Below are positions 4,322 to 44,037 of a stretch of DNA of 44,037 nt, piece after piece; the first letter of the stretch is position 1; the number at the start of each line of letters is the position of its first letter. This stretch comes from Thiohalomonadales bacterium (GTDB lineage Bacteria; Pseudomonadota; Gammaproteobacteria; UBA6429; Thiohalophilaceae). The stretch covers positions 1-44,037 of the forward strand of contig JBGMQW010000001.1 of the NCBI GenBank assembly GCA_048060815.1, given 5' to 3'. The position numbers and the translations under genes were made by a program. Under the pieces are notes generated by a model that saw nothing but the letters and a program-made list of their open reading frames with translations, made no database searches and was not told where the DNA came from.

Positions 4322-5074
4322 TTATAATAAATCACTTATCACCGATGCGGTTTTCATTAACGCGTGATTTGGATTTTCTGATCGAAAAATTAACACATTA
4401 GTGGAACCTTCGCATTCACCAACCAGGCTATTTTCTACAATTTTACGCATTTGTTTGGGATCATTGTTAGAAATTTCACAAAAAGTAATATGCAGTTTAG
4501 AAGAATCATCTTTCAATGAGTTTAAAGTAGCATCATTGAGACCACAAAGTCCGACTTTCTCCTGTTTCAAAATAGCAATAAACTGTTTCGGTAGTAATTC
4601 TTCAAGTAACCCAGAGGTTTTTATTTCTTGTATATCAATACAGATATTTATTTGTGCCTGGCTGATTTTTAATAAAATATTAATAAAATCCAGTTTTTCA
4701 CTTGATAAATTACAAATATCTGAATACTTAAATACCAAGACTAAAGCTAAACTTCGAAAACCAACAAATGAAATTTTTTTTAAAAATTGCTGAACTTCTG
4801 TCAGTATTTCATCGTTTGACCTTGAATTAATATTATTTAGTGGTAGTTCGAATATTAGTCGACATGTTTCTTCACTATCTGCTATACCTTGCCCAAATAA
4901 CTCAAAATTTTCCTGTAGTAAGATCCACGGAATCATCAAAACTGAATACTCATTTGCATAATATGCAAATTGCCATTCTCTCGGTAAATCCTCAGGATAG
5001 AATGAATTATCCCAGGATTCATGTAACCAGCCATAAGAGCCGATATGTAGTTTATATTCGCTAGCCATAAACAC
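4322..5074 (-). CDS. Hypothetical protein, weakly DUF72 (YecE)-like at the N-terminus
   Basis: 250-aa ORF. Only the N-terminal HIGSYGWLHESWDNSFYPEDLP..YYANEYSVL resembles the DUF72 G.sGW....W...FYP...YA motif as I recall it. The rest is unrecognised. It lies 19 nt upstream of mlaF on the same strand. Confidence 0.4.
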   Translation of the reverse strand: MFMASEYKLHIGSYGWLHESWDNSFYPEDLPREWQFAYYANEYSVLMIPWILLQENFELFGQGIADSEETCRLIFELPLNNINSRSNDEILTEVQQFLKKISFVGFRSLALVLVFKYSDICNLSSEKLDFINILLKISQAQINICIDIQEIKTSGLLEELLPKQFIAILKQEKVGLCGLNDATLNSLKDDSSKLHITFCEISNNDPKQMRKIVENSLVGECEGSTNVLIFRSENPNHALMKTASVISDLL

Positions 5075-12304: not shown

Positions 12305-12643
12305 ATGCAAATAAATGTAACCGGGCACCACATCGAAGTAACTGATTCGTTACATGATTATATTAAAAATAAATTTGAACGACTGGAACGACATTTTGAT
12401 AAGGTAACCAATATAAATGTGATTTTAAATGTTGAAAAATTAGACCAAAAAGCGGAAGCTACCTTAAATTTAAAAGGTAACAAAATATTTGCTGAGGCGA
12501 TTAATGCAGATATGTATGCATCAATTGATGCACTACTAGATAAACTGGACAGGCAAATTTGCAAACACAAAGAAAAAATAACAGATCATCATCGTAGTGA
12601 AGGAAGCATACGTAAACAAGAACAATTCGAGGATCAAATATAA
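12305..12643 (+). CDS. hpf: Ribosome hibernation promoting factor (short HPF/YhbH type)
   Basis: 112 aa, MQINVTGHHIEVTDSL..YI..K..RLERHF; lies immediately after rpoN. Confidence 0.9.
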   Translation: MQINVTGHHIEVTDSLHDYIKNKFERLERHFDKVTNINVILNVEKLDQKAEATLNLKGNKIFAEAINADMYASIDALLDKLDRQICKHKEKITDHHRSEGSIRKQEQFEDQI

Positions 12644-12647
12644 AACA

Positions 12648-13103
12648 ATGGAATTAACTGATTTAATTTCTCCTGATCGTATTGCATGTAATGTTGAAGC
12701 AACTAGTAAAAAAAAAGCGCTAGAAACATTAAGCGATTTAATAAGTAGTGCAGACACCAAGTTTTCATCTATCGATGTATTCAGCAGTCTTCTTGCGCGC
12801 GAACGATTAGGAGGAACAGGAGTAGGACATGGCGTAGCTATTCCACATGGACGTTTAAAAAATAGTGCAAATAAAACAATAGGCGCATTGATTAAACTAA
12901 AATATGGTGTTGATTTTGATACTCTGGATAATAAGCCAGTTGATTTATTATTTGCGCTATTGGTTCCAGAAAATTCAACAGATGAGCATCTTCAAGTTTT
13001 AGCAGTTCTTGCATCTCTATTTGAACAAGCCGATTTTAGAGAAAAACTTCGTGAAGCAGATTCACCTGAAAAGGTATTTCAACTTATTAAAGAATGGCAA
13101 TAA
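12648..13103 (+). CDS. ptsN: Nitrogen-PTS EIIA-Ntr (PtsN)
   Basis: 151 aa from ATG 12648 (MELTDLISPDRI) with the phospho-His region GVGHGVAIPHGR. The track start at 12597 is a GTG overlapping hpf. Contains an in-frame A9 run (12708..12716, KKK). Confidence 0.9.
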   Translation: MELTDLISPDRIACNVEATSKKKALETLSDLISSADTKFSSIDVFSSLLARERLGGTGVGHGVAIPHGRLKNSANKTIGALIKLKYGVDFDTLDNKPVDLLFALLVPENSTDEHLQVLAVLASLFEQADFREKLREADSPEKVFQLIKEWQ

Positions 13104-13118
13104 AAGTATTATTCCGTT

Positions 13119-14063
13119 ATGAGTAAAATATTTACTGCACAACGGCTTTATAAAGACTTCAAAACCCGTTTATCTCTTTCTTGGGCAACAACTAAAAATG
13201 AAGATAAACGTTATGAGTCAATTGTTGCACCTGAAAATCAGCAACGCAGCTTAATCGGGCACCTTAATTTAATAAGACCGAATTACATTCAAGTAATAGG
13301 ACAGTCAGAGCTTGATTATTTAATGTCACTCGGTAAAAACTCCCGGCAAGATGCTATAGCAACACTATTAATTCATACTCCAGTCATTGTCATTTTAGCG
13401 GATTCTATATCTGAAATTCCCGGGCTGACTAACAACGCTAATATATCCGGTACTCCCATTTTAAAAAGTATTGAAAACAGCATTAATATTATTGATAGCA
13501 TACAATATGACTATTCCGGTATATTCTCCGGCCATATAAACATGCATGGTGTTTTCATGGAAGTAATGGGTATCGGTGTGCTGTTAACAGGAGAGAGCAA
13601 TATTGGTAAAAGTGAATTAGCATTAGCATTAATTTCTCGTGGCCATCGGCTCATTGCAGACGACTCGCCTGAGTTTTTGCGTGACGCTCCAGACGTTATT
13701 ACCGGTACATGTCCTGCTGTTTTAAAAGACTTTCTTGAAGTAAGGGGCCTTGGTATTTTAAACATTAGAGCAATGTATGGTGACAATTCAATCGTGGCTT
13801 ATAAACGATTACGATTAATAATACACCTGGCTGAGTTGACTATTTCAGAAAGTCAGGAGATTGATCGACTTGGTAGTAAGCCTCATAGTATAACGATATT
13901 AAATGTAGAGATTCCTAAAACAGTTATTCCTGTTGCGCCAGGCAGACATCTAGCTGTTATTGTTGAAGCAGCTGTACGAAATCAAGTTTTAATTATGAAT
14001 GGTTATGATGCTTCAAGCGATTTTATACAAAGGCAACAAAATATAATTTTAAATAAAAATTAA
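13119..14063 (+). CDS. hprK: HPr kinase/phosphorylase HprK
   Basis: Full-length 314 aa. P-loop GESNIGKSELALALISRGHRLIADD, and EVRGLGILNI matches the HprK signature. Confidence 0.9.
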   Translation: MSKIFTAQRLYKDFKTRLSLSWATTKNEDKRYESIVAPENQQRSLIGHLNLIRPNYIQVIGQSELDYLMSLGKNSRQDAIATLLIHTPVIVILADSISEIPGLTNNANISGTPILKSIENSINIIDSIQYDYSGIFSGHINMHGVFMEVMGIGVLLTGESNIGKSELALALISRGHRLIADDSPEFLRDAPDVITGTCPAVLKDFLEVRGLGILNIRAMYGDNSIVAYKRLRLIIHLAELTISESQEIDRLGSKPHSITILNVEIPKTVIPVAPGRHLAVIVEAAVRNQVLIMNGYDASSDFIQRQQNIILNKN

Positions 14064-14084
14064 AATGAATAACAGGATTTATAT

Positions 14085-14939
14085 ATGCGTTTAGTTATTC
14101 TCAGTGGATTGTCAGGATCTGGAAAAAGTAATGCCCTTCATGTATTAGAGGATCATGATTTTTATTGCATTGATAATTTACCCATTAATTTGTTACAAGC
14201 ATTTGCAGAAGATATAATAAATTCAAAAAATCAAGGCCCTGATAACTTTGCTGTTGGGATTGATGCACGAAATTTAACTACTATTTTAGATGACTTTGAA
14301 GATATGCTCGAAAATTTAAATACCAAAGAGTTACAATGTGAGGTTATCTACCTTAAAGCAACTGACGATGTCATTATTAAACGCTTCAGTGAGACTAGAA
14401 GAAAACATCCTCTTACTAATAACAAAACTTCATTAAATGAAGCCATAAAAAAAGAAAAATATTTACTCGAACCAATTTCACGATGCGCTCAAATAACATT
14501 TGATACATCCTATACTAATATACATGAACTTAGAGACATAATAACCCAAAGGATTTGTAGTGATAATTTAAACCTTACAATACAATTTCTGTCATTTGGA
14601 TTTAAACACGGTATTCCACTAAATGCAGACTATGTATTTGATGTTCGATGCCTTCCAAATCCACATTGGGAACCAGAACTTAGATCAAAAACTGGTAAAG
14701 ATGTTATTGTTCAAAATTTTTTAGAGCGCCATTCTTCTGTACGTAAAATGAGGGATGATATTATTAATTTTATCTCAGACTGGATACCTTGCTTTGAGTC
14801 AGACAATAAAAGTTACATGACCATAGCAATTGGTTGTACTGGGGGACAACATCGTTCAGTTTATTTTACTGAAAAATTATCTGAACATTTTTCTAATATT
14901 CGTGACAGCGTTCAAACACGGCATCGAGAATTATCATGA
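14085..14939 (+). CDS. rapZ: RNase adapter / P-loop protein RapZ (YhbJ)
   Basis: MRLVILSGLSGSGKS Walker A and the C-terminal GCTGGQHRSV motif. Confidence 0.92.
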   Translation: MRLVILSGLSGSGKSNALHVLEDHDFYCIDNLPINLLQAFAEDIINSKNQGPDNFAVGIDARNLTTILDDFEDMLENLNTKELQCEVIYLKATDDVIIKRFSETRRKHPLTNNKTSLNEAIKKEKYLLEPISRCAQITFDTSYTNIHELRDIITQRICSDNLNLTIQFLSFGFKHGIPLNADYVFDVRCLPNPHWEPELRSKTGKDVIVQNFLERHSSVRKMRDDIINFISDWIPCFESDNKSYMTIAIGCTGGQHRSVYFTEKLSEHFSNIRDSVQTRHRELS

Positions 14940-15328
14940 GTGTCGGTCTATTAATCATAACTCATAAAAATATTGGGAAATCTTTATTAGATGCTGCTTC
15001 AGCTGTACTAGGACGCTGCCCCTTAAAAGCAATTACAGTGTCAATTGAAAATAATTCCGATCCTGATCGTAAAAGCGATATAGTAAAAAAACATATAAAC
15101 AAACTTGGTAGTGATGAAGGAATATTAATACTTACTGATATGTATGGTTCGACTCCCAGCAATATAGCATGTAGACATGTATCAAAAAACATTAAAGCTG
15201 TTTCCGGATTAAATCTTCCTATGTTAGTCCGTGTCCTAAATTATCCTGATTTGGATTTAAATCAACTTATCGCTAAAGCCACATCAGGTGGAATCGAAGG
15301 CGTTATGAGTTGTAAAAACGAAGATTAA
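14936..15328 (+). CDS. PTS EIIA component, mannose/fructose family, stand-alone
   Basis: 130 aa. The N-terminal GLLIITHKNIG carries the family phospho-His. ATGA overlap with the rapZ stop. Confidence 0.82.
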   Translation: MSVGLLIITHKNIGKSLLDAASAVLGRCPLKAITVSIENNSDPDRKSDIVKKHINKLGSDEGILILTDMYGSTPSNIACRHVSKNIKAVSGLNLPMLVRVLNYPDLDLNQLIAKATSGGIEGVMSCKNED

Positions 15329-15329
15329 A

Positions 15330-15599
15330 ATGATAAATTATAATATAACAATTATTAATAAATTAGGTCTGCATGCTCGTGCCGCAGCAAAATTTGTTAC
15401 TATTGCATCAAAATTTGAATCGACAATTGACATTGAATGTAAAAAAAATAAAGTCAATGGTAAAAGTATTATGGGAGTAATGATGTTAGCCGCATCAAAA
15501 GGTACTGACATTGAATTAATAATATCAGGAATTGATGAAGAACAAGCATTCAAGGCGCTTTCAACATTAATTAATAATCGATTTGATGAAAAAGAATAA
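15330..15599 (+). CDS. ptsH: Phosphocarrier protein HPr/NPr
   Basis: 89 aa with His15 context GLHARAA and Ser46 context GKSIMG, the site HprK targets. Confidence 0.9.
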   Translation: MINYNITIINKLGLHARAAAKFVTIASKFESTIDIECKKNKVNGKSIMGVMMLAASKGTDIELIISGIDEEQAFKALSTLINNRFDEKE

Positions 15600-15687
15600 T
15601 TCTATATTGATTTTTTGAAAACATAAATATATAAATTAACAGTACCTGAATAAATTATTTTTTTTATAAATATAGGTTATTTGTAAT

Positions 15688-17436
15688 ATGACTTTAATTT
15701 TAAATGGCACAGGAGTATCTAGTGGCATCGCGATAGGTGAAGTCATTATATTAGAAAAAAATAAATTTGATATATCCGAATATACAATACCTGCTGATGA
15801 AATAGAAAATGAAATAAAACGTTACCGCGAAGCAATATCTATAGCTAAAAATAATTTACAAGACATTCGTGAACATATTTCTAATTCTGCACCTGAAGAT
15901 ATAGCTGCATTTATTGATGCACATTTATTAATGCTCTATGATGCAACTCTGGCAATTGCTCCGATTGAAATAATTAAATCACAAAAATGTAATGCTGAAT
16001 GGGCTTTGAAAATTCAACGTGATAAATTAATTTCAGTTTTCATGGCAATGGAAGATCCGTATCTGCGAACTCGAAGTGAAGATATTGAACATGTGTCTAA
16101 CTCCGTTTTATCAATTTTACTAAAAAATACCGTATCATTATCATCAATTTCCGGAACAGAAAATAATATAAAAAATAAAATACTGGTAACAATGGATCTC
16201 ACTCCTGCTGATACAGTTCTTATTCAACAACAAGGTTTCAATGGTTTTGTTATTGAAGCTGGTGGTTTAACATCACATACTGCAATATTAGCTCGAAGTT
16301 TAAAAATCCCTGCCATTGTTGGAATGTCAAATGTACTTAAGCTTATTAAGAATAATGAAACAATTATAATTGATGGTACAACTGGAATATTAATATCTGG
16401 TGATAATAAAAATACAATTCAATATTATAAAAACAAAAATACTAAACACCAGGAACACATAAGGAAATTAATTTCAACACAAAATCTACCATGCGTAACA
16501 CTTGATGGAACCAATATAACTTTAAGAGCAAATATTGAACTTCCAAATGATATTCAAGAGGTAAATGAAATAGGTGCTGAAGGTGTTGGCTTATATCGCA
16601 CTGAGTTTTTATTTATGAACCGGAAAAACAGTCCAAGCGAACAAGAACAGTATGAAACCTATGTTAAAATAGCACAACAGATTCAAAACCACCCTTTAAC
16701 AATACGAACTTTTGATTTAGGAGCTGATAAACAGGTTGATGGAGCACAAAAAGATTTACCGACCACAACCAATCCAGCATTGGGATTACGAGCTATTCGA
16801 TTGTGCTTTAAAGAACCACAACTTTTTATTCCACAAATACGTGCAATTTTACGTGTTTCTGCCAAATATAAGCTACGAATTTTGATTCCAATGTTATCAA
16901 ATTCACATGAACTGGATCAGATACTAAACATTATTAATGATGTAAAACACAGTTTAAATTCACAAAATATTAAATTCGACAAAAATATTATGATTGGAGC
17001 AATGATTGAGGTTCCAGCAGCAGCTTTATCAGCAGAAATTTTCGCTCAAAAGATGGATTTTTTATCAATAGGAACTAATGACTTAATACAATATACTCTT
17101 GCTGTGGATAGAATAGATGAAAGCGTTAACTACCTCTATGATCCAATTAATCCTGCAGTATTAAGACTGATTAAAATGACAATAGATGCAGGAGAGAAAT
17201 ATAATATTCCAGTATCAATGTGTGGTGAAATGGCAGGTGACATTCGATATACCTGTTTATTGTTAGGAATGGGGCTAAATGAGTTCAGTATGCATCCTGG
17301 TACGATACCTGAAATCAAATATAAAATTCAAAAATGTAATTTGAAAAATATCAAAAATCAGGTTTCTAAACTTTCAAGTTGTTCAACAATGCATAAATAT
17401 CATGATATTCTTGATAAATTAGATAATATCAACTAA
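15688..17436 (+). CDS. ptsI: PTS Enzyme I (PtsI type, no GAF domain)
   Basis: 582 aa. Phospho-His region GGLTSHTAILARSL, PEP-utiliser signature GLYRTEFLF, and C-terminal MCGEMAG. Confidence 0.93.
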   Translation: MTLILNGTGVSSGIAIGEVIILEKNKFDISEYTIPADEIENEIKRYREAISIAKNNLQDIREHISNSAPEDIAAFIDAHLLMLYDATLAIAPIEIIKSQKCNAEWALKIQRDKLISVFMAMEDPYLRTRSEDIEHVSNSVLSILLKNTVSLSSISGTENNIKNKILVTMDLTPADTVLIQQQGFNGFVIEAGGLTSHTAILARSLKIPAIVGMSNVLKLIKNNETIIIDGTTGILISGDNKNTIQYYKNKNTKHQEHIRKLISTQNLPCVTLDGTNITLRANIELPNDIQEVNEIGAEGVGLYRTEFLFMNRKNSPSEQEQYETYVKIAQQIQNHPLTIRTFDLGADKQVDGAQKDLPTTTNPALGLRAIRLCFKEPQLFIPQIRAILRVSAKYKLRILIPMLSNSHELDQILNIINDVKHSLNSQNIKFDKNIMIGAMIEVPAAALSAEIFAQKMDFLSIGTNDLIQYTLAVDRIDESVNYLYDPINPAVLRLIKMTIDAGEKYNIPVSMCGEMAGDIRYTCLLLGMGLNEFSMHPGTIPEIKYKIQKCNLKNIKNQVSKLSSCSTMHKYHDILDKLDNIN

Positions 17437-19157: not shown

Positions 19158-19385
19158 ATGATGGCTAAATCGAAAAGAATTCGTTGGGAAGATGTTTATC
19201 AATGTGAGATTCCAGCTCAAGCAAAGTTAATAACAAGTGTGCTTCATGCAAATGGACTTCATGCAAAAGTACAACGAAAAAAAGCAAAAGAAAATAACAT
19301 CACTGTTCCATTTGTTCGGGTGAAAAAAAATCAGGCCAAACATGCAAAAGTATTATTGTTAAATTATAATCTGTCTTTATTATAA
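19158..19385 (+). CDS. Small basic hypothetical protein (faintly DUF2007-like)
   Basis: 75-aa ORF with an SD (AAGGAAA) about 7 nt upstream. The family assignment is only a weak impression. Confidence 0.4.
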   Translation: MMAKSKRIRWEDVYQCEIPAQAKLITSVLHANGLHAKVQRKKAKENNITVPFVRVKKNQAKHAKVLLLNYNLSLL

Positions 19386-23880: not shown

Positions 23881-24270
23881 TTATTTATCAGTTATAATTG
23901 ACGACTCTCGATCAATAATAATTTCTAAATCAAGTTGTTTGGTATCAGTACTCCCAGGACTCAAACTAATTTTTGTTGCTGGAAGTCCTAAGGAGATCAA
24001 CCATCCACGTAATTCCAAAGCCCACAGACTACCTTCATCACCTCCTGGATGATGAATCACAAGTGAGGAATTCTCATTTACACGGATTACTCGCATAGCA
24101 GATGTTACTGCTTCCATTGATAAAATAGAACTAGCACTTCGCGGTACAGCCCATTGTGCTGAAGATAAATGATATACAAATTCTGAAGCGTAAATCGTTT
24201 GGTAAAAAAATAACAACACACAACAAAAGCATACTCTAAACTTTAAGTAATCTTTGTTTAAAATATTCAT
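23881..24270 (-). CDS. Orphan secreted/periplasmic protein
   Basis: 129 aa with a signal-peptide-like N-terminus (KFRVCFCCVLLFFYQTIYA-SE). I recognise no family. Starts 21 nt after the yhdP stop on the same strand. Confidence 0.5.
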   Translation of the reverse strand: MNILNKDYLKFRVCFCCVLLFFYQTIYASEFVYHLSSAQWAVPRSASSILSMEAVTSAMRVIRVNENSSLVIHHPGGDEGSLWALELRGWLISLGLPATKISLSPGSTDTKQLDLEIIIDRESSIITDK

Positions 24271-33190: not shown

Positions 33191-34219
33191 TTAAATAGAT
33201 ACCGTCGGCAAATATCGAAGTCCTGCAATCCCTAAGCTTAATTGTAACAATTCATCCCATAAATTGCCTATTTCATTACCTTTAATTATACGATCAGTCT
33301 TATTTGATTTGCGAAGTAATGCCTGCAGTGAGGCTATTGAATGGCGATTTAAAGCATTTCGTACCATAATTTTTCGTTTATCCCACACTCGTTGTTGTCG
33401 AAATACTAATTCCATTGCATCGCCATTTTCTAAACAACTTTTCATTTTAAGCAAGCTACGAATTTCTTTTGAAAGAGACCAGTTTATTAAAAGTGGAGTA
33501 ATACCTTCTGATTTCAAACCATATAAAATACGGGGAATATGTTTAAGTTCGCCTTTTAAAGCTTCATCAGCTAATTTAAATATATCATAGCGGGCACTGT
33601 CAGCTACAGATTGCTCGACAATATCAAGAGTTAATTCATTCGATGGACAAATGAGTGATAATTTCTCGATTTCCTGGTCGGCAGCTAATAGATTACCCTC
33701 TATTCTATCAACCAGTATTTGTAAGGCATTCTCACTTGTTTTTAAGTTTCGTAAATTTAACCTTGATATGACCCAGGAACGAAGCTCAGTTCCTTCAATA
33801 GGCCATATTGTGACTGAAACCCCTACATTTAATATCGATTTAAACCATTTTGTGGTGGTAGTCGCTTTTTCCAGTTTATTAGTAACAATCAATAACAAGG
33901 TGTCACTGGAAATATTCTCACAGTATTCCACAAGCATTTGTCCACCTTCTTTACCGGGTTTACCATTTGGCATACGCAATTCAAGTATTTTCTTTTCTGC
34001 GAATAATGATAAACTATTTTTCGACATTGAAAAATCTGACCAACTAAATCCTTTTTCTATAAATAACAATTCTCTATTGCTATAACCTTGTTCCACTGCC
34101 TTTTCTCTAATTAATTTGATAGCTTGTTGTACTTGAAATGGCTCATCCCCACTGACTATATAAACAGGTTGTAAGGATGTAGTTAGCTGTTGTTCAAGAT
34201 TATTAAAATAAATTTTCAT
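33191..34219 (-). CDS. holA: DNA polymerase III delta subunit HolA
   Basis: 342 aa. N-terminus L..QL...L.PVYIVSGDEPF. Downstream of lptE as in other gammaproteobacteria. Its ATG lies 5 nt from the end of a palindromic element. Confidence 0.88.
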   Translation of the reverse strand: MKIYFNNLEQQLTTSLQPVYIVSGDEPFQVQQAIKLIREKAVEQGYSNRELLFIEKGFSWSDFSMSKNSLSLFAEKKILELRMPNGKPGKEGGQMLVEYCENISSDTLLLIVTNKLEKATTTTKWFKSILNVGVSVTIWPIEGTELRSWVISRLNLRNLKTSENALQILVDRIEGNLLAADQEIEKLSLICPSNELTLDIVEQSVADSARYDIFKLADEALKGELKHIPRILYGLKSEGITPLLINWSLSKEIRSLLKMKSCLENGDAMELVFRQQRVWDKRKIMVRNALNRHSIASLQALLRKSNKTDRIIKGNEIGNLWDELLQLSLGIAGLRYLPTVSI

Positions 34220-34224
34220 GAATA

Positions 34225-34470
34225 CTAGGGTCTGTTGATCTTTCAGATTTTAGAACTGAATAAAGAATTATAATACCAATGATTATCAATAAATAGTAAA
34301 AGTTAGGACACGGAATTGGGATACCCCTATCAAGACCGTGTGCCGCAGGACGCGGCACCCGAGCATGCCATGGATGGCAATGTTTTGCGTGTCTTGATAG
34401 GGGTATCCCGGTTTCGTGGCCGGATTTAAACTACAAATCAGATAAAATTTGAAAGATCAACAGACCCTAG
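34225..34470. mobile_element. MITE-like palindromic element, type A (246 bp maximal extent)
   Basis: Terminal inverted repeats CTAGGGTCTGTTGATCTTTCAGATTTT (34225..34251) and AAAATTTGAAAGATCAACAGACCCTAG (34444..34470) match at 26 of 27 positions. Read as TA-flanked, the element is GGGTCTG...CAGACCC (34228..34467). Non-coding, with a GC-rich internal hairpin. Only one copy in this window. Confidence 0.65.
34318..34409. repeat. Type A internal hairpin: perfect 19-bp arms around a GC-rich core
   Basis: GGGATACCCCTATCAAGAC (34318..34336) is the exact reverse complement of GTCTTGATAGGGGTATCCC (34391..34409). The core at 34330..34397 is homologous to the type B core in inverse orientation. Confidence 0.85.
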
Positions 34471-34471
34471 T

Positions 34472-34731
34472 TAACCTGAACTCGGTATAAGCAAATATAA
34501 TTTAAATAACAAAATTAGGTAGTTACGTATGAGTAATACTAAATCCATCGGCTACGGAAGGGCTGTAGCCCATTCAAGACTCGCAAAACATGCCATCCAT
34601 GGCCGCTCGACTGCCGCGTCCCTGCGGCAGACGGTCTTGAATGGGCTACAGCCCTTCCATATCCTTGCATTTGTACTCGCAATTTATTAATGGATGCTGT
34701 TACATGTTTTTCTTATCCTGAGTTCAGGTTA
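34472..34731. mobile_element. MITE-like palindromic element, type B, copy 1 (260 bp)
   Basis: TIRs TAACCTGAACTCGG... and ...CCTGAGTTCAGGTTA. Non-coding and bounded by TA at both ends. A second 260-bp copy at 39660..39919 differs at 16 positions with no indels. Confidence 0.85.
34556..34658. repeat. Type B internal hairpin: perfect 25-bp arms around a 53-nt GC-rich centre
   Basis: GGAAGGGCTGTAGCCCATTCAAGAC (34556..34580) is the exact reverse complement of GTCTTGAATGGGCTACAGCCCTTCC (34634..34658). An inner 7-bp stem pairs CTGCCGC (34611..34617) with GCGGCAG (34624..34630). Confidence 0.9.
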
Positions 34732-39659: not shown

Positions 39660-39919
39660 TAACCTGAACTTGGGATAAGCAAATATAATTTAAATAACAA
39701 AATTCAGTAGTTACGTATGAGTCATACTAAATCCATCGGCTACGGAAGGGCTGTAGCCCATTCAAGACTCGCAAAACATGCCATCCATGGCCGCTCGACT
39801 GCCGCTTCCCTGCGGCAGACGGTCTTGAATGGGCTACAGCCTTTCCATATCCTTACATTGGTTCTCGCAATTTATTAGTGGATGTTATTACATGTTTTTC
39901 TTATACCGATTTCAGGTTA
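39660..39919. mobile_element. MITE-like palindromic element, type B, copy 2 (260 bp)
   Basis: Identical to copy 1 (34472..34731) at 244 of 260 positions by hand alignment, in the same orientation and TA-bounded. Lies in the intergenic region between the tusE-like terminator and the DUF1451-like gene. Confidence 0.85.
39744..39846. repeat. Type B internal hairpin, copy 2
   Basis: Same 25-bp arms as copy 1, except one position that becomes a G:T (G-U in RNA) pair. The inner 7-bp stem is intact, with one change in its loop. Confidence 0.9.
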
Positions 39920-39988: not shown

Positions 39989-40492
39989 ATGAAAAATTCT
40001 AATAAATCAACTTTTGTTGAAACTTACAATCGTATACTGGAAAATTTATATAATATAAAAAATTCTGTTGAAGATACGTCGCGTGAAGATTTGTCGATAA
40101 AAATGGAGTATGCAAAAAAGAAATTACAAGAATTTGAAGATATCACAAAAGAAGAAATTGATATCGTAACAAAGTATTTACACAGAGATATTACAGCAGC
40201 AACAAATCATTTGAACAAAACCAAAAATAATATTAAAGAGTGGATAGACAAAGACATAAAGTTAACAGAAGATAAATTACTTCATTTGTTTGTTAATGTT
40301 GTTGACCAAAGTCGAGTTGAGTTGCTCGAACTAGAAACTTTATTACATGAATGGCATAGCGGTGAAGTAACCGGCATTGGAGTTTTGGAATGTAAAAATT
40401 GTGGTGAAAAGATTACTTTTACCGAAACACAAATTATTAAAAATTGTTCAAAGTGTAATGGTGAAATATTTCACAAATACTTTGATTTTTAG
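39989..40492 (+). CDS. Zinc-ribbon-containing protein (DUF1451-like)
   Basis: 167 aa: a helical N-terminal part (Y..IL..L, EEID.V.KYL.RD), then GEVTGIGVLECKNCGE...CSKCNG..F, a C-x2-C ... C-x2-C ribbon. The family name is from memory. Confidence 0.65.
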   Translation: MKNSNKSTFVETYNRILENLYNIKNSVEDTSREDLSIKMEYAKKKLQEFEDITKEEIDIVTKYLHRDITAATNHLNKTKNNIKEWIDKDIKLTEDKLLHLFVNVVDQSRVELLELETLLHEWHSGEVTGIGVLECKNCGEKITFTETQIIKNCSKCNGEIFHKYFDF

Positions 40493-42036
40493 TTTATCAA
40501 CTTAAATTTTCGTTGTAAAAATACAAACACTAAAAAAAGCGCAAATACTACTAACATTGGCTTATTTCCGAGATAGACATACGGTGTTGCTCCCGTACGA
40601 GGTTGGACTTTTCCTGTTAATACAAAAGGTTCAAATTGAGGGCTAGTCTGAAGTAATTCACCGTCTTTATTAACAAACGCGCTAATCCCATTTGTAGTTA
40701 CACGCATCAATTCTCTTCCAGTTTCAACTGCACGCATTCGAGATATTTGTAAATGTTGATGTGGTGCAAATGAATCACCATACCAGGCATTATTACTACC
40801 ATTCACCAACAAAGTTGCTTCTGGAAGTTGCCGTATCACTTCTTCACCAAAGGCGTCTTCATAACAAATTGTCACAGCCAGAGTTTGCCCACCCGCTTTT
40901 AACAAAGCTTGATCCAAATCACCACGGCTAAAGCCAGACATGGGTAAATCAAGAAAAGTTATCAATCCCCTAAAAATATCTTCGAAAGGAATAAACTCAC
41001 CAAATGGTACTAAGTGTGTTTTTTTATAAACACCTGGAGTCCGACCAAAACTCATAAAAGTACTATAATATTGTCCTGTGTTTCTATTTTGTACAGGTAT
41101 TCCAATCACTAAATCCGTATTATAACTCAAAGCAGTTTTTTCTAATGGATCCAGATAACTCTCTTTTAAATCATGATAAAACATGGTTAAACTATTTTCT
41201 GGCCAAATGACGATATCACTATTCCAATGCTGTTCGGTTAAACTTTTATAGATATTTAATCTCTCATTAATTTTATCTTTATCCCATTTAGTAATTTGCG
41301 GAGCATTTCCCTGAATCAGGCTCACTAATAATGGCTTATCAACCTTTTCAGTCCATTCTATTTTTTTTAATAAATGTCCTGCAAGAAAAACAGTAACTAC
41401 CAATATTGAAAATATACCAAAGCGGTTCCAGTAATGTGAACAACTGTATTTCCAGATTAATATAAGAAAACCGGAACTCAACACAACGAACCAACTTACG
41501 CCATAAACACCAATAATTGGAGCATAACCCATTAAGCTAGTATCAATTTGTGAATATCCTAAATTAAGCCACGGAAAACCAGTAAATATTGTGCCTCGAA
41601 TCCATTCAAACATCACCCAGATTAAAGGTAAAATTAACAACACAGCTAATTGCAGATAGTATCTACAATTACTAAATTGATTTAAAACCCAGGCCGAAAA
41701 CATTCCTTGAAAACCGATCACTAAAGCAACAAATGCTACAAATAAAAATGTTAGTAAAACCGCCAATAAGAACGGCGTATTACCAAACTCATGAATAGCT
41801 ACAAAAACCCAGGATATACCAACACCAAATAAGCCAAGTCCAAATACATAAGCACGCCAGAATGCAGTCCGTGCAGAAATATTCAAAACGGATAAAAAAA
41901 GAATTGCCGGAGAAAAATAAGCTAACGGTAATAAATTTGTAGGTGCAAATGCTAGTGATAACAAAGCACCAATGAAGAACATAAAAATTAATATTTGATT
42001 GTTTGAAAATCTCTCTTTATTACGAAACACTAGCAC
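40489..42036 (-). CDS. lnt: Apolipoprotein N-acyltransferase Lnt
   Basis: 515 aa with a multi-TM N-terminal region plus a C-N hydrolase domain (WPE, K...LVPFGE, ICYE). Precedes corC-ybeY-phoH as in E. coli. Confidence 0.92.
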   Translation of the reverse strand: MLVFRNKERFSNNQILIFMFFIGALLSLAFAPTNLLPLAYFSPAILFLSVLNISARTAFWRAYVFGLGLFGVGISWVFVAIHEFGNTPFLLAVLLTFLFVAFVALVIGFQGMFSAWVLNQFSNCRYYLQLAVLLILPLIWVMFEWIRGTIFTGFPWLNLGYSQIDTSLMGYAPIIGVYGVSWFVVLSSGFLILIWKYSCSHYWNRFGIFSILVVTVFLAGHLLKKIEWTEKVDKPLLVSLIQGNAPQITKWDKDKINERLNIYKSLTEQHWNSDIVIWPENSLTMFYHDLKESYLDPLEKTALSYNTDLVIGIPVQNRNTGQYYSTFMSFGRTPGVYKKTHLVPFGEFIPFEDIFRGLITFLDLPMSGFSRGDLDQALLKAGGQTLAVTICYEDAFGEEVIRQLPEATLLVNGSNNAWYGDSFAPHQHLQISRMRAVETGRELMRVTTNGISAFVNKDGELLQTSPQFEPFVLTGKVQPRTGATPYVYLGNKPMLVVFALFLVFVFLQRKFKLIN

Positions 42037-42892
42037 CTGCCTGTGGTTCAGATATCACGGTCATATAAAGTAGATGTATTCTTCTATTATCTGCACGTAA
42101 TATTTTAAAATGGAAACCGTCAATTTCGATTAACTCACCGCGTGTCGGTAGATGTCCAATTCGATTGAGAAGCAAACCTCCAAGTGTATCATATTCATCA
42201 CTGGTAAAATCACATAAGAAGTGTTCATTAAAATCTTCAATAGGAGTTAGTGCTTTAATGGTATAGTTTTGATCACCATGATCTTTAATATAAGCATCTT
42301 CATCTATATCATGTTCATCTTCAATTTCACCGACAATTTGCTCCAATACATCCTCTATTGTAACAAGTCCGGAGACACCACCATACTCATCAACAACAAT
42401 TGCCATGTGATTACGACTCGACCGAAATTCATTTAATAAAATATTCAGGCGTTTACTTTCAGGAATTACAATTGCCTGACGAATAATATCGCGTAAATAA
42501 AACTTACTTTTATTATCACTAACAAAATACTGTAATAAATCTTTTGCTAATAGAATACCAATAACTTCATCCAGATTTTCACCAATAACAGGAAATCGTG
42601 AATGATTAGATTCAACAACAGTTGGTAATATGTCCTTAATATCTGAATCACGCTCTAAAACTACCATTTGTGAACGTGGAACCATAATATCTCTAGCTTG
42701 CATTTCAGATACTTGTAGTACCCCTTCAATCATACCAAGAGCATCAGAATCAAATAAATTTCGCTGTTCTGAATCTCGTAGCAATGTAATAAGCTGTTCC
42801 CTGTCTTGTGGTTCACCTAGCAATGCTTGTGCTAAACGTTCCAGCCAGGTCTTAGCCTGGTTTTCTGAATTAATTTGTAATTCTTCATTCAT
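42020..42892 (-). CDS. corC: CorC/YbeX (CBS pair + CorC_HlyC domain) protein
   Basis: 290 aa. MVPRSQM, a CBS pair, HMAIVVDEYGG.SGLVT.EDVLE.IVG.I.DE.D. Confidence 0.92.
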   Translation of the reverse strand: MNEELQINSENQAKTWLERLAQALLGEPQDREQLITLLRDSEQRNLFDSDALGMIEGVLQVSEMQARDIMVPRSQMVVLERDSDIKDILPTVVESNHSRFPVIGENLDEVIGILLAKDLLQYFVSDNKSKFYLRDIIRQAIVIPESKRLNILLNEFRSSRNHMAIVVDEYGGVSGLVTIEDVLEQIVGEIEDEHDIDEDAYIKDHGDQNYTIKALTPIEDFNEHFLCDFTSDEYDTLGGLLLNRIGHLPTRGELIEIDGFHFKILRADNRRIHLLYMTVISEPQAGASVS

Positions 42893-43349
42893 ATTTCATT
42901 TACCTGATAAGGGTTCTGAAACCCTAATTTATTAAGAATTTGGACTTCCATATCTTCCATTTCGTGTGCCTGCCCTATAGTTATATGATCAAAACCTTGT
43001 AAATGTAAAACACCATGTATTACTAAATGAGCCCAATGCTCCAGTTCTGTTTTAGATTGCTTCCGTGCTTCTGTTGCTACAATTTGTGCACATATTACTA
43101 AATCACCCAATAAAATCAGATCAACATTATTTTCAACTTCAAAAGGAAATGCAAGAACGTTCGTTGCTGAATTTTTATTTCGATATTTTTCGTTAAGCCC
43201 AGCACTTTCAGTTTCGTTTACAATTCGAATTGTAAGCTCAACTTGCTTAGTCAAATCTATGTTTGCTGCATTTGCCCACTTGGAAAATAGTTCTTCATTA
43301 GGTATATTTAGTTTTTTTTTACTATATATTGTACAGTAACATTAATCAT
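42889..43349 (-). CDS. ybeY: Endoribonuclease YbeY, reading frame broken at an A9 run; needs A10 or a -1 slip for the full 153-aa product
   Basis: The body (42889..43341 frame) carries TNVLAFPFE and the zinc site [15 protein letters not shown] but has no ATG/GTG start; the track ORF begins at an internal TTG (43254). An ATG at 43349 overlaps the phoH stop (ATGA) and encodes [13 protein letters not shown]-stop in the other frame. The two frames meet in the A9 run. Confidence 0.85.
43312..43320 (-). other. Poly(A)9 tract (T9 on + strand) at the ybeY frame junction
   Basis: Counted directly: g43311, then nine t (43312..43320), then a43321. The upstream frame reads GTA AAA AAA AAC TAA. The body frame reads AGT AAA AAA AAA CTA AAT. 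Confidence 0.95.
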
Positions 43350-44037
43350 GATGGATCAAATTCTTGTTCGTATTTATCATATGCTGTTACTATTTTTTGT
43401 ACCAAAGGGTGACGGACAACATCTTTTGCTTGAAAAAAAGTAAAACTAATATCGTTTACGCCTTTTAATACATCAATAACATGTCGTAAACCTGATTTTT
43501 GACCACGGGGTAAATCAATTTGTGTGATATCACCGGTAATAACTGCTGTTGAATTAAAACCAATACGCGTTAAAAACATTTTCATTTGTTCAGTTGTTGT
43601 ATTTTGCGCTTCATCCAGAATAATAAAAGAATCGTTTAGTGTTCGTCCACGCATATAAGCTAACGGGGCTACTTCTATCACATTCCTCTCAATTAATTTT
43701 GCAACTTGCTCAAAACCCAGCATTTCGTACAAAGCATCATATAGTGGTCTTAAATAAGGATCGATTTTTTGAGCGAGGTCTCCCGGTAAAAATCCCAGAC
43801 GTTCACCAGCTTCTACAGCAGGACGGGTTAATACTATTCTTCGGACTTCATCTTGATCAAATGCTTGAATTGCACATGCGACAGCTAAATACGTCTTACC
43901 TGTCCCTGCAGGACCAATCCCAAAATTTAGATCATTGCGAATTATATCTTGCAAGTAATTTTTCTGATTTGGTCCTCGTCCGGTAATAGAGCGTCGAGGA
44001 GTTTGAATTATAGGTGAAATGTGTTTATCTGAATCTT
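43346..44037 (-). CDS. phoH: PhoH-like ATPase YbeZ, 5' end outside the window
   Basis: Walker [14 protein letters not shown] and Walker B IILDEAQN. The frame stays open upstream of the track start, which is an internal TTG, to the window edge (..[26 protein letters not shown]..). Confidence 0.9.

Follow-up and report, generated by a model that had tools for sequence, protein, structure and literature searches.

A single-base frameshift at a nine-adenine tract divides ybeY in an AT-rich gammaproteobacterial genome sequence

Organization of the ybeY locus

The stretch of DNA analyzed here, 44,037 nucleotides in length and referred to below as the window, ends within a row of genes on the minus strand. 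The 3' part of a PhoH-like ATPase gene of the ybeZ/phoH type, cut by the window end, occupies 43346..44037 and covers positions 47-253 of the 253-position NCBIfam PhoH profile; relatives carry a 327-aa PhoH gene (PF02562) at the same position. This gene is followed by ybeY, by corC (ybeX; 42020..42892; positions 14-281 of the 292 of the NCBIfam CorC profile), and by lnt (40489..42036; TIGR00546, 323 bits, profile positions 1-394 of 395), the last gene of the miaB-phoH-ybeY-corC-lnt row, which has the same order in the related loci L011 and L012. The part of the row from phoH to lnt is tightly coupled, and the same arrangement is present in these two loci, with miaB upstream. The longest ORF of lnt, starting from GTG 42036, overlaps the end of corC by 17 nt (42020..42036), and the corC ATG overlaps the ybeY stop codon as ATGA (42892..42889), so that translation of corC is probably coupled to that of ybeY.

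The upstream boundary of ybeY is organized in the same manner. The ybeY ATG (43349..43347) overlaps the TGA of the PhoH-like ORF (43348..43346), the 3' end of which reads CCA TCA TGA directly on the minus strand, and thus forms an ATGA overlap (43346..43349) of the kind that implies translational coupling; the surrounding TCATGAT is conserved in all five relatives compared at the DNA level (L001, L002, L003, L010, and L011). From this ATG, the frame reads ATG ATT AAT GTT ACT GTA CAA TAT ATA GTA AAA AAA AAC TAA, that is, the start codon and 12 further codons (the leader, 43308..43349), terminated by the TAA at 43310..43308. The A9 run at 43320..43312, which appears as T9 on the plus strand, is the point where the frames of the leader and of the catalytic body meet. 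The initial annotation of this DNA had described the coupling to phoH, the reading of the leader, and the position of the tract, and every coordinate holds when the sequence is read again.

The body of YbeY is encoded in a frame displaced by -1 relative to the ATG. With a TAA at 43344..43342 as its upstream limit, this frame stays open as far as the TGA at 42891..42889, and residues 11-153 of the restored protein are encoded in it (42889..43341). It contains the codons of the zinc-binding site H112-x3-H116-x5-H122 (42985..43017), which were read directly from the sequence; the three histidines are invariant in an alignment of 34 sequences. The first ATG, GTG, or TTG in the body frame is the TTG at 43252..43254, as had been reported, and initiation there would yield an ORF of 121 aa (42889..43254), removing 32 N-terminal residues including Q7, P17, and W25. 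Hence no single uninterrupted ORF extends from the conserved ATG through ybeY, and one added A is needed to obtain it. Insertion of this A produces a 462-nt ORF encoding a protein of 153 aa, in which the in-frame form of the tract is A10 (GTA AAA AAA AAA CTA, encoding VKKKL). The proposal that A10, or a -1 slip on A_AAA_AAA, would give a YbeY of normal length with the H-x3-H-x5-H site intact is borne out by this insertion. The slippery heptamer itself lies in the zero frame of the leader, GT[A AAA AAA] AAC.

The ancestral N-terminus of YbeY

Sequence, motif, fold, and synteny all place the corrected protein in the YbeY family. It matches the TIGR00043 profile with 132 bits, against a cut-off of 45, over positions 6-145 of 146, and PF02130 is recorded on all homologues found. 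The metal-binding histidines H112, H116, and H122, along with R57, D83, C87, K100, W106, and H108, are all present and invariant. An AlphaFold (AF2) model of the corrected protein has a pLDDT of 90.7, with residues 2-8 forming beta-strand 1 (pLDDT about 96) and the lysine tract located in the loop of residues 9-18; a Foldseek comparison of this model with E. coli YbeY (1XM5) gives a TM-score of 0.91-0.94 and an rmsd of 1.7 A over 148 columns. The gene also occupies the expected miaB-phoH(ybeZ)-ybeY-corC-lnt neighborhood.

In a collection of 5.8 billion proteins, the 19 closest homologues share 63-81% identity with the corrected protein and are 152-156 aa long. All 19 start with MINV or MINI, and most with MINVTVQY, and on these grounds the leader in the upstream frame is, as judged from the homologues, the ancestral YbeY N-terminus, comprising the start codon and beta-strand 1. 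Residues 1-10 of the leader match the start of the closest orthologue (P0002) at every position, 98% of 118 homologues have Q7, and the sequence is exactly 1 nt shorter at the tract than in the five relatives; jointly, these observations show that the junction of the two frames is not a chance arrangement. Alignments to the YbeY structures 1XAX and 1XM5 are likewise gap-free from Q7 across the junction.

A shorter YbeY produced from the body frame, for example, by re-initiation once the leader has terminated, is very unlikely. Two starts would be available for such a product, ATA 43331..43329, giving 146 aa, and TTG 43254, giving 121 aa. The TTG ORF does exist, and the stop codon of the leader is located 54 nt upstream of this TTG. 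The existing database call, P0001 (42889..43331, 146 aa, beginning with MYSKKK), corresponds to the ATA form; yet this ATA is just the first of the table-11 alternative starts to occur once the upstream stop has been passed, so that the call is mechanical and has no weight as evidence. Neither ATA nor TTG is preceded by a Shine-Dalgarno (SD)-like sequence. The ATA form lacks beta-strand 1 and the conserved Q7; the TTG form additionally lacks P17 and W25, which are conserved in 99-100% of the homologues, and helix 1, whereas the 19 close homologues are all full length. Because both starts remove conserved structural elements, they were rejected as functional solutions. In P0001, the ATA is translated as M, and the frameshift is hidden by this choice.

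Selection on the gene, origin of the tract, and genomic context

Signals of pseudogene decay were sought in ybeY among the conserved alignment columns, in dN/dS, and in relative rates, and none was detected. The corrected protein retains all invariant and nearly invariant YbeY columns. Between the corrected gene and L001, its nearest orthologue, dN/dS is 0.12, where intact orthologues give 0.11-0.17 among themselves, and a relative-rate test assigned 11-12 changes to the window sequence and 7-10 to L001, a non-significant difference. The first ten codons, upstream of the lesion, differ from those of L001 by five synonymous and no nonsynonymous substitutions. By our own rough estimate, based on the lack of nonsynonymous changes at approximately 22 sites given a dS of about 0.43 on the window branch, coding constraint appears to have acted on the leader during at least about 70% of the period following the divergence from L001. 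Constraint for most of the branch implies that the lesion is very recent, that it is harmless because it is corrected, or that it is not real. The best explanation of these sequence comparisons is that ybeY is a functional, selectively maintained gene.

Accordingly, it seems improbable that the A9 is genuine but inadequately rescued, which would make the gene a very recent pseudogene or an allele that is dead in the sampled strain, with the function lost or taken over by a second ybeY at another place in the genome. The frameshift does leave the catalytic body without its start codon and beta-strand 1, and gene erosion in AT-rich genomes usually begins with homopolymer indels (PMC3017870). However, the gene carries no second lesion and shows no rate acceleration, with a dN/dS of 0.12; the amino acids of the leader remain perfectly conserved; and the rest of the window is free of pseudogenes. 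Furthermore, YbeY is near-universal and important (PMC7327168, PMC6144821), and any A9 tract would give rise to some corrected mRNA (PMC5009743).

The initial annotation had proposed comparing the tract with that of orthologues from close relatives. In the DNA alignment, an A-run is absent from the tract site in all five relatives, and the window has a 1-nt gap there. Where L001 reads ATT GTT ACA GAA AAA TCC AAC, the window reads ATA GT(A) AAA AAA AAA CTA AAT. Because none of the five relatives has the A-run, the tract is lineage-specific: it arose in this lineage by AT-directed substitutions that replaced T, E, and S with K, K, and L, and the present A9 is, on the same comparison, a one-base contraction of a lineage-specific A10 (GTA AAA AAA AAA). 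In this genome, AAA accounts for 85% of the lysine codons.

The absence of the A-run from the relatives also means that this is not an evolutionarily conserved recoding site, and a conserved site was rejected on that basis. The initial annotation had pointed to dnaX-like -1 frameshifting. As in E. coli dnaX (A AAA AAG), there is an A-rich zero-frame heptamer of the X XXY YYZ type and slippage would be in the -1 direction, and a stop codon directly follows the tract, so that the dnaX precedent speaks for an evolved recoding or phase-variation switch that would set the dosage of YbeY. Unlike in dnaX, the ybeY heptamer ends in AAA AAA, no SD-like element was seen by inspection upstream of A_AAA_AAA, and no stimulatory RNA structure was found downstream, the 90 nt folding with -10.5 kcal/mol compared with a mean of -11.5 for shuffled sequences (z = +0.40). 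A promoter scan around ybeY gave no more matches than expected from shuffling. Although a repeat is present, ybeY is a housekeeping RNase gene rather than a contingency-type gene, and the alternative product would be merely a 13-aa peptide without a plausible function. Given also that the tract is missing in all five relatives, a programmed switch is exceedingly unlikely, and frameshifting as a programmed event is not upheld. Even together, the truncated-start and programmed-switch readings retain little probability.

The tract is an isolated defect in an otherwise sound stretch of genome. The window has a GC content of 33.8% and is about 91% coding. Besides ybeY, it contains 44 ORFs, 42 of which match NCBIfam profiles without any sign of truncation, whereas two are unmatched but continuous, so that ybeY is the only broken gene among 45. 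The other genes include leuS-lptE-holA, proA, nadD, rsfS, rlmH, maf, rng, yhdP, tldD, pmbA, mgtE, the PTS-Ntr cluster, rpoN, lptCAB, kdsDC, mla genes, and murA; neither an Rfam scan nor a tRNA scan of the window gave a hit. The window thus looks like part of a normal, dense genome and not like that of a decaying endosymbiont.

Several other features of the window were recorded. Downstream of rpoN, positions 12305..17436 encompass a complete cluster of the nitrogen-PTS type, consisting of hpf, ptsN, hprK, rapZ, a mannose-type EIIA gene, HPr/NPr, and ptsI; an HPr kinase is a slightly unusual member of such an rpoN cluster in a gammaproteobacterium. Two ORFs on the minus strand, one of 250 aa between mlaF and mlaA (4322..5074) and one of 129 aa between yhdP and a deaminated-glutathione amidase gene (23881..24270), have no NCBIfam match at E <= 1e-5, and a lysine-rich ORF of 75 aa is located on the plus strand in the 371-nt gap between mgtE and pmbA (19158..19385). 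An element of about 230 nt, GC-rich (54-61%, compared with 34% for the window) and strongly palindromic, is repeated at 34220..34728 and 39688..39918. Two copies, at 34500-34730 and 39688-39918, share about 95% identity, and their 31-nt arms, with 94% complementarity, enclose a 53-nt loop; a diverged inverted copy (34260-34490) is bracketed by a 38-nt inverted repeat (34215-34252 and 34443-34480). The lptE-holA and tusE/dsrC-zinc-ribbon intergenic gaps, which are unusually long, are taken up by these elements, which look like mobile elements of the MITE or REP type; no Rfam match to the element was found.

Homopolymers in the window follow its base composition. The ybeY A9 and an A9 in ptsN (12708..12716) are the only two 9-nt homopolymers in the 44 kb, about as many as expected at 34% GC, and counts fall roughly threefold with each added base. 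There are 219 A/T runs of 5 nt, 71 of 6 nt, and 26 of 7 nt, and the coding ones among them break no ORF. Eleven other A/T runs are at least 8 bases long; nine of these are coding, including that of ptsN, which had been noted as in frame and indeed is, and all nine are in frame. Three other KKK runs are encoded in the window, one by a pure A9 and two interrupted by AAG, which are too few for an inference on avoidance of AAA-AAA-AAA. In about 40 kb of coding sequence, no other indel was detected. A generally error-prone assembly was rejected, the other 44 ORFs being intact, and an unpolished assembly of R9-type nanopore reads was excluded, given that hundreds of 5-8-nt runs break no gene; as evidence on the sequencing platform, run-length and repeat statistics exclude this one case only.

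Possible miscounting of the tract or rescue by slippage

The most likely reading, to which we give an even chance, is that the A9 is either a homopolymer miscall or one allele of a length-polymorphic tract, and that the working gene has A10. AT-biased substitutions would have turned the variable beta1-alpha1 loop into V-K-K-K, encoded by GTA AAA AAA AAA and thus containing an A10. The A9 of the consensus would then represent a miscalled homopolymer length or one of the alleles in the sampled population, and ordinary translation, starting at the ATG that is coupled to the stop codon of the phoH-like gene, would supply the cells with YbeY. The lesion consists of one absent base, a contraction, and affects one of the two homopolymers that are the longest in the 44 kb; the gene has no other fault, with regard to its conserved residues, its dN/dS, or the substitution pattern of its leader. 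The corrected protein is modeled with high confidence and closely resembles 1XM5, and the remainder of the window shows no decay, nearly all of its other ORFs matching profiles without signs of truncation. A true frameshift would also uncouple the translation of corC and lnt, a probable further cost, and would probably lower the expression of both genes.

Two lines of published evidence bear on this reading. The errors that persist in current long-read consensus sequences are at homopolymers of at least 10 bases, with R10.4 nanopore consensus still unreliable at such lengths (PMC9262707), and YbeY is essential or strongly needed in many bacteria (PMC7327168, PMC6144821), which makes a majority loss-of-frame allele in a natural population unlikely a priori. 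On the other hand, Illumina consensus is not considered prone to homopolymer-length errors (PMC9980784), and the nine other coding A/T runs of at least 8 bases are all in frame, so that the assembly is not generally error-prone. The ybeY tract resembles known homopolymer consensus errors in that one of the two longest homopolymers lacks a base, in a gene of the essential type that is otherwise sound; it differs from the situation in error-ridden assemblies in that the window has no other coding indel and the ptsN A9 is in frame, so that any error would be an isolated one. An independent sequence of the same species, which could display the A10, was not found in the genome, metagenome, and protein collections searched by related loci in contigs, by the exact P0001 and CorC products, and by homologue search, the nearest relative being 81% identical. 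Weighing these points by our own rough priors, under which a near-universal RNase whose frame is broken in the majority of cells of a non-degraded genome is unlikely compared with isolated consensus errors or length polymorphism, we infer that the tract in the organism is A10.

The principal competing explanation, which we regard as possible but doubtful, is that the genome does carry the A9 and that RNA polymerase (RNAP), slipping on the T9 template, adds one A to a fraction of the transcripts, from which full-length YbeY is translated. Transcripts with A10 would be in frame, as would those with A13 and A7, and slippage of ribosomes by -1 on A_AAA_AAA may add a small amount. Full-length YbeY would then be produced at reduced dosage, and the remaining ribosomes would release a 13-aa peptide at the TAA after the tract. 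The A9 lies exactly at the frame junction of a gene that is otherwise intact and under normal constraint, and the loop that holds it (residues 9-18) is variable in sequence and length across orthologues of 153-156 aa, such that products with KK, KKK, or KKKK should fold, as far as the model indicates. Runs of 9 A or T cause efficient slippage of bacterial RNAP in vivo (PMC5009743), transcription errors at A/T runs are mostly single-base insertions, which is the correction needed here (PMC5574713), and, if the data are from Illumina sequencing, the A9 consensus is probably right (PMC9980784).

The magnitude of such rescue is a matter of conflicting precedent. In Blochmannia and Buchnera, about 30% of the transcripts from poly(A)-frameshifted genes are full length, and these genes do not evolve at an accelerated rate (PMC3017870). 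In a reporter study of E. coli RNAP, poly(A) tracts gave poor rescue, with none detectable below A8, and T7 and T8 gave just 5% and 10% (PMC6260861). Reversion from A9 to A10 is a high-rate event and should sweep in a large free-living population if the lesion is costly. The tract is conserved in none of the five relatives, nothing in the window points to relaxed selection of the kind typical of endosymbionts, and ribosomal slippage would have neither a downstream structure (z = +0.40, as above) nor an upstream SD-like element to assist it.

The closest known parallels are in Buchnera and Blochmannia (Tamas et al. 2008 and Wernegreen et al. 2010, as summarized in PMC3017870). As in ybeY, a single-base indel at a tract of at least 9 A affects an otherwise intact housekeeping gene of an AT-rich gammaproteobacterium without rate acceleration, and, if the A9 is real, the mechanism would be identical, with RNAP adding one A. 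With regard to the features by which those cases are recognized, ybeY has the homopolymer of at least 9 A/T at the frame change and the intact, non-accelerated gene, but the frameshift does not recur in independent strains or species, the five relatives being without the tract. In the endosymbionts, the genomic frameshift was verified, the mRNA pools are mixed, and some of the frameshifts are conserved across strains or species, whereas the ybeY tract is lineage-specific. Moreover, Buchnera and Blochmannia are obligate endosymbionts, whereas the genome carrying this ybeY looks dense and non-degraded. The comparison with endosymbionts made in the initial annotation therefore stands for the mechanism alone and fails for the genomic setting, in which 44 other genes are intact.

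Utilized slippage sites differ further. Thermus thermophilus dnaX (T9), the Shigella mxiE/spa genes, and Citrobacter rodentium tssM1 (A11; PMC4256274) share with ybeY a homopolymer of 9-11 A/T with an adjacent stop codon, and a full-length protein that needs an extra base in the mRNA. In those systems, both products are functional, their ratio matters, and the sites are conserved or experimentally shown; in ybeY, the short product is a 13-aa fragment containing beta-strand 1. The set of four options initially listed, namely assembly error, pseudogene, phase variation, and slippage, proved to be the correct one, and the comparative data lower the probability of the more interesting among them.

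Either a miscount or a recent slip that would be partly repaired by RNAP stuttering is a known, ordinary phenomenon, and neither outcome raises a new question, given that the mechanism is well described, as are the gene and the error class. If the tract was miscounted, the locus should be annotated as an intact ybeY of 153 aa, and not as the 146-aa ATA-start or 121-aa TTG-start products of gene callers. If the A9 is genuine, ybeY would be a further gene of the essential type dependent on polymerase infidelity, and its interest would come mainly from the non-degraded setting. It is rather unlikely that the A9 is both true and fixed, with a core RNase expressed only via RNAP slippage in a dense, non-endosymbiotic genome; the setting would be a low-GC gammaproteobacterium of marine or vent type, and the relatives are labeled as Thioalkalispiraceae MAGs. 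Should the tract nevertheless be fixed at A9, corC and lnt, through the ATGA coupling, would also be expressed only through RNAP slippage, the endosymbiont phenomenon would extend to a lineage where selection should be effective, and this would hint that slippage can be a tolerated or even utilized setting of gene dosage.
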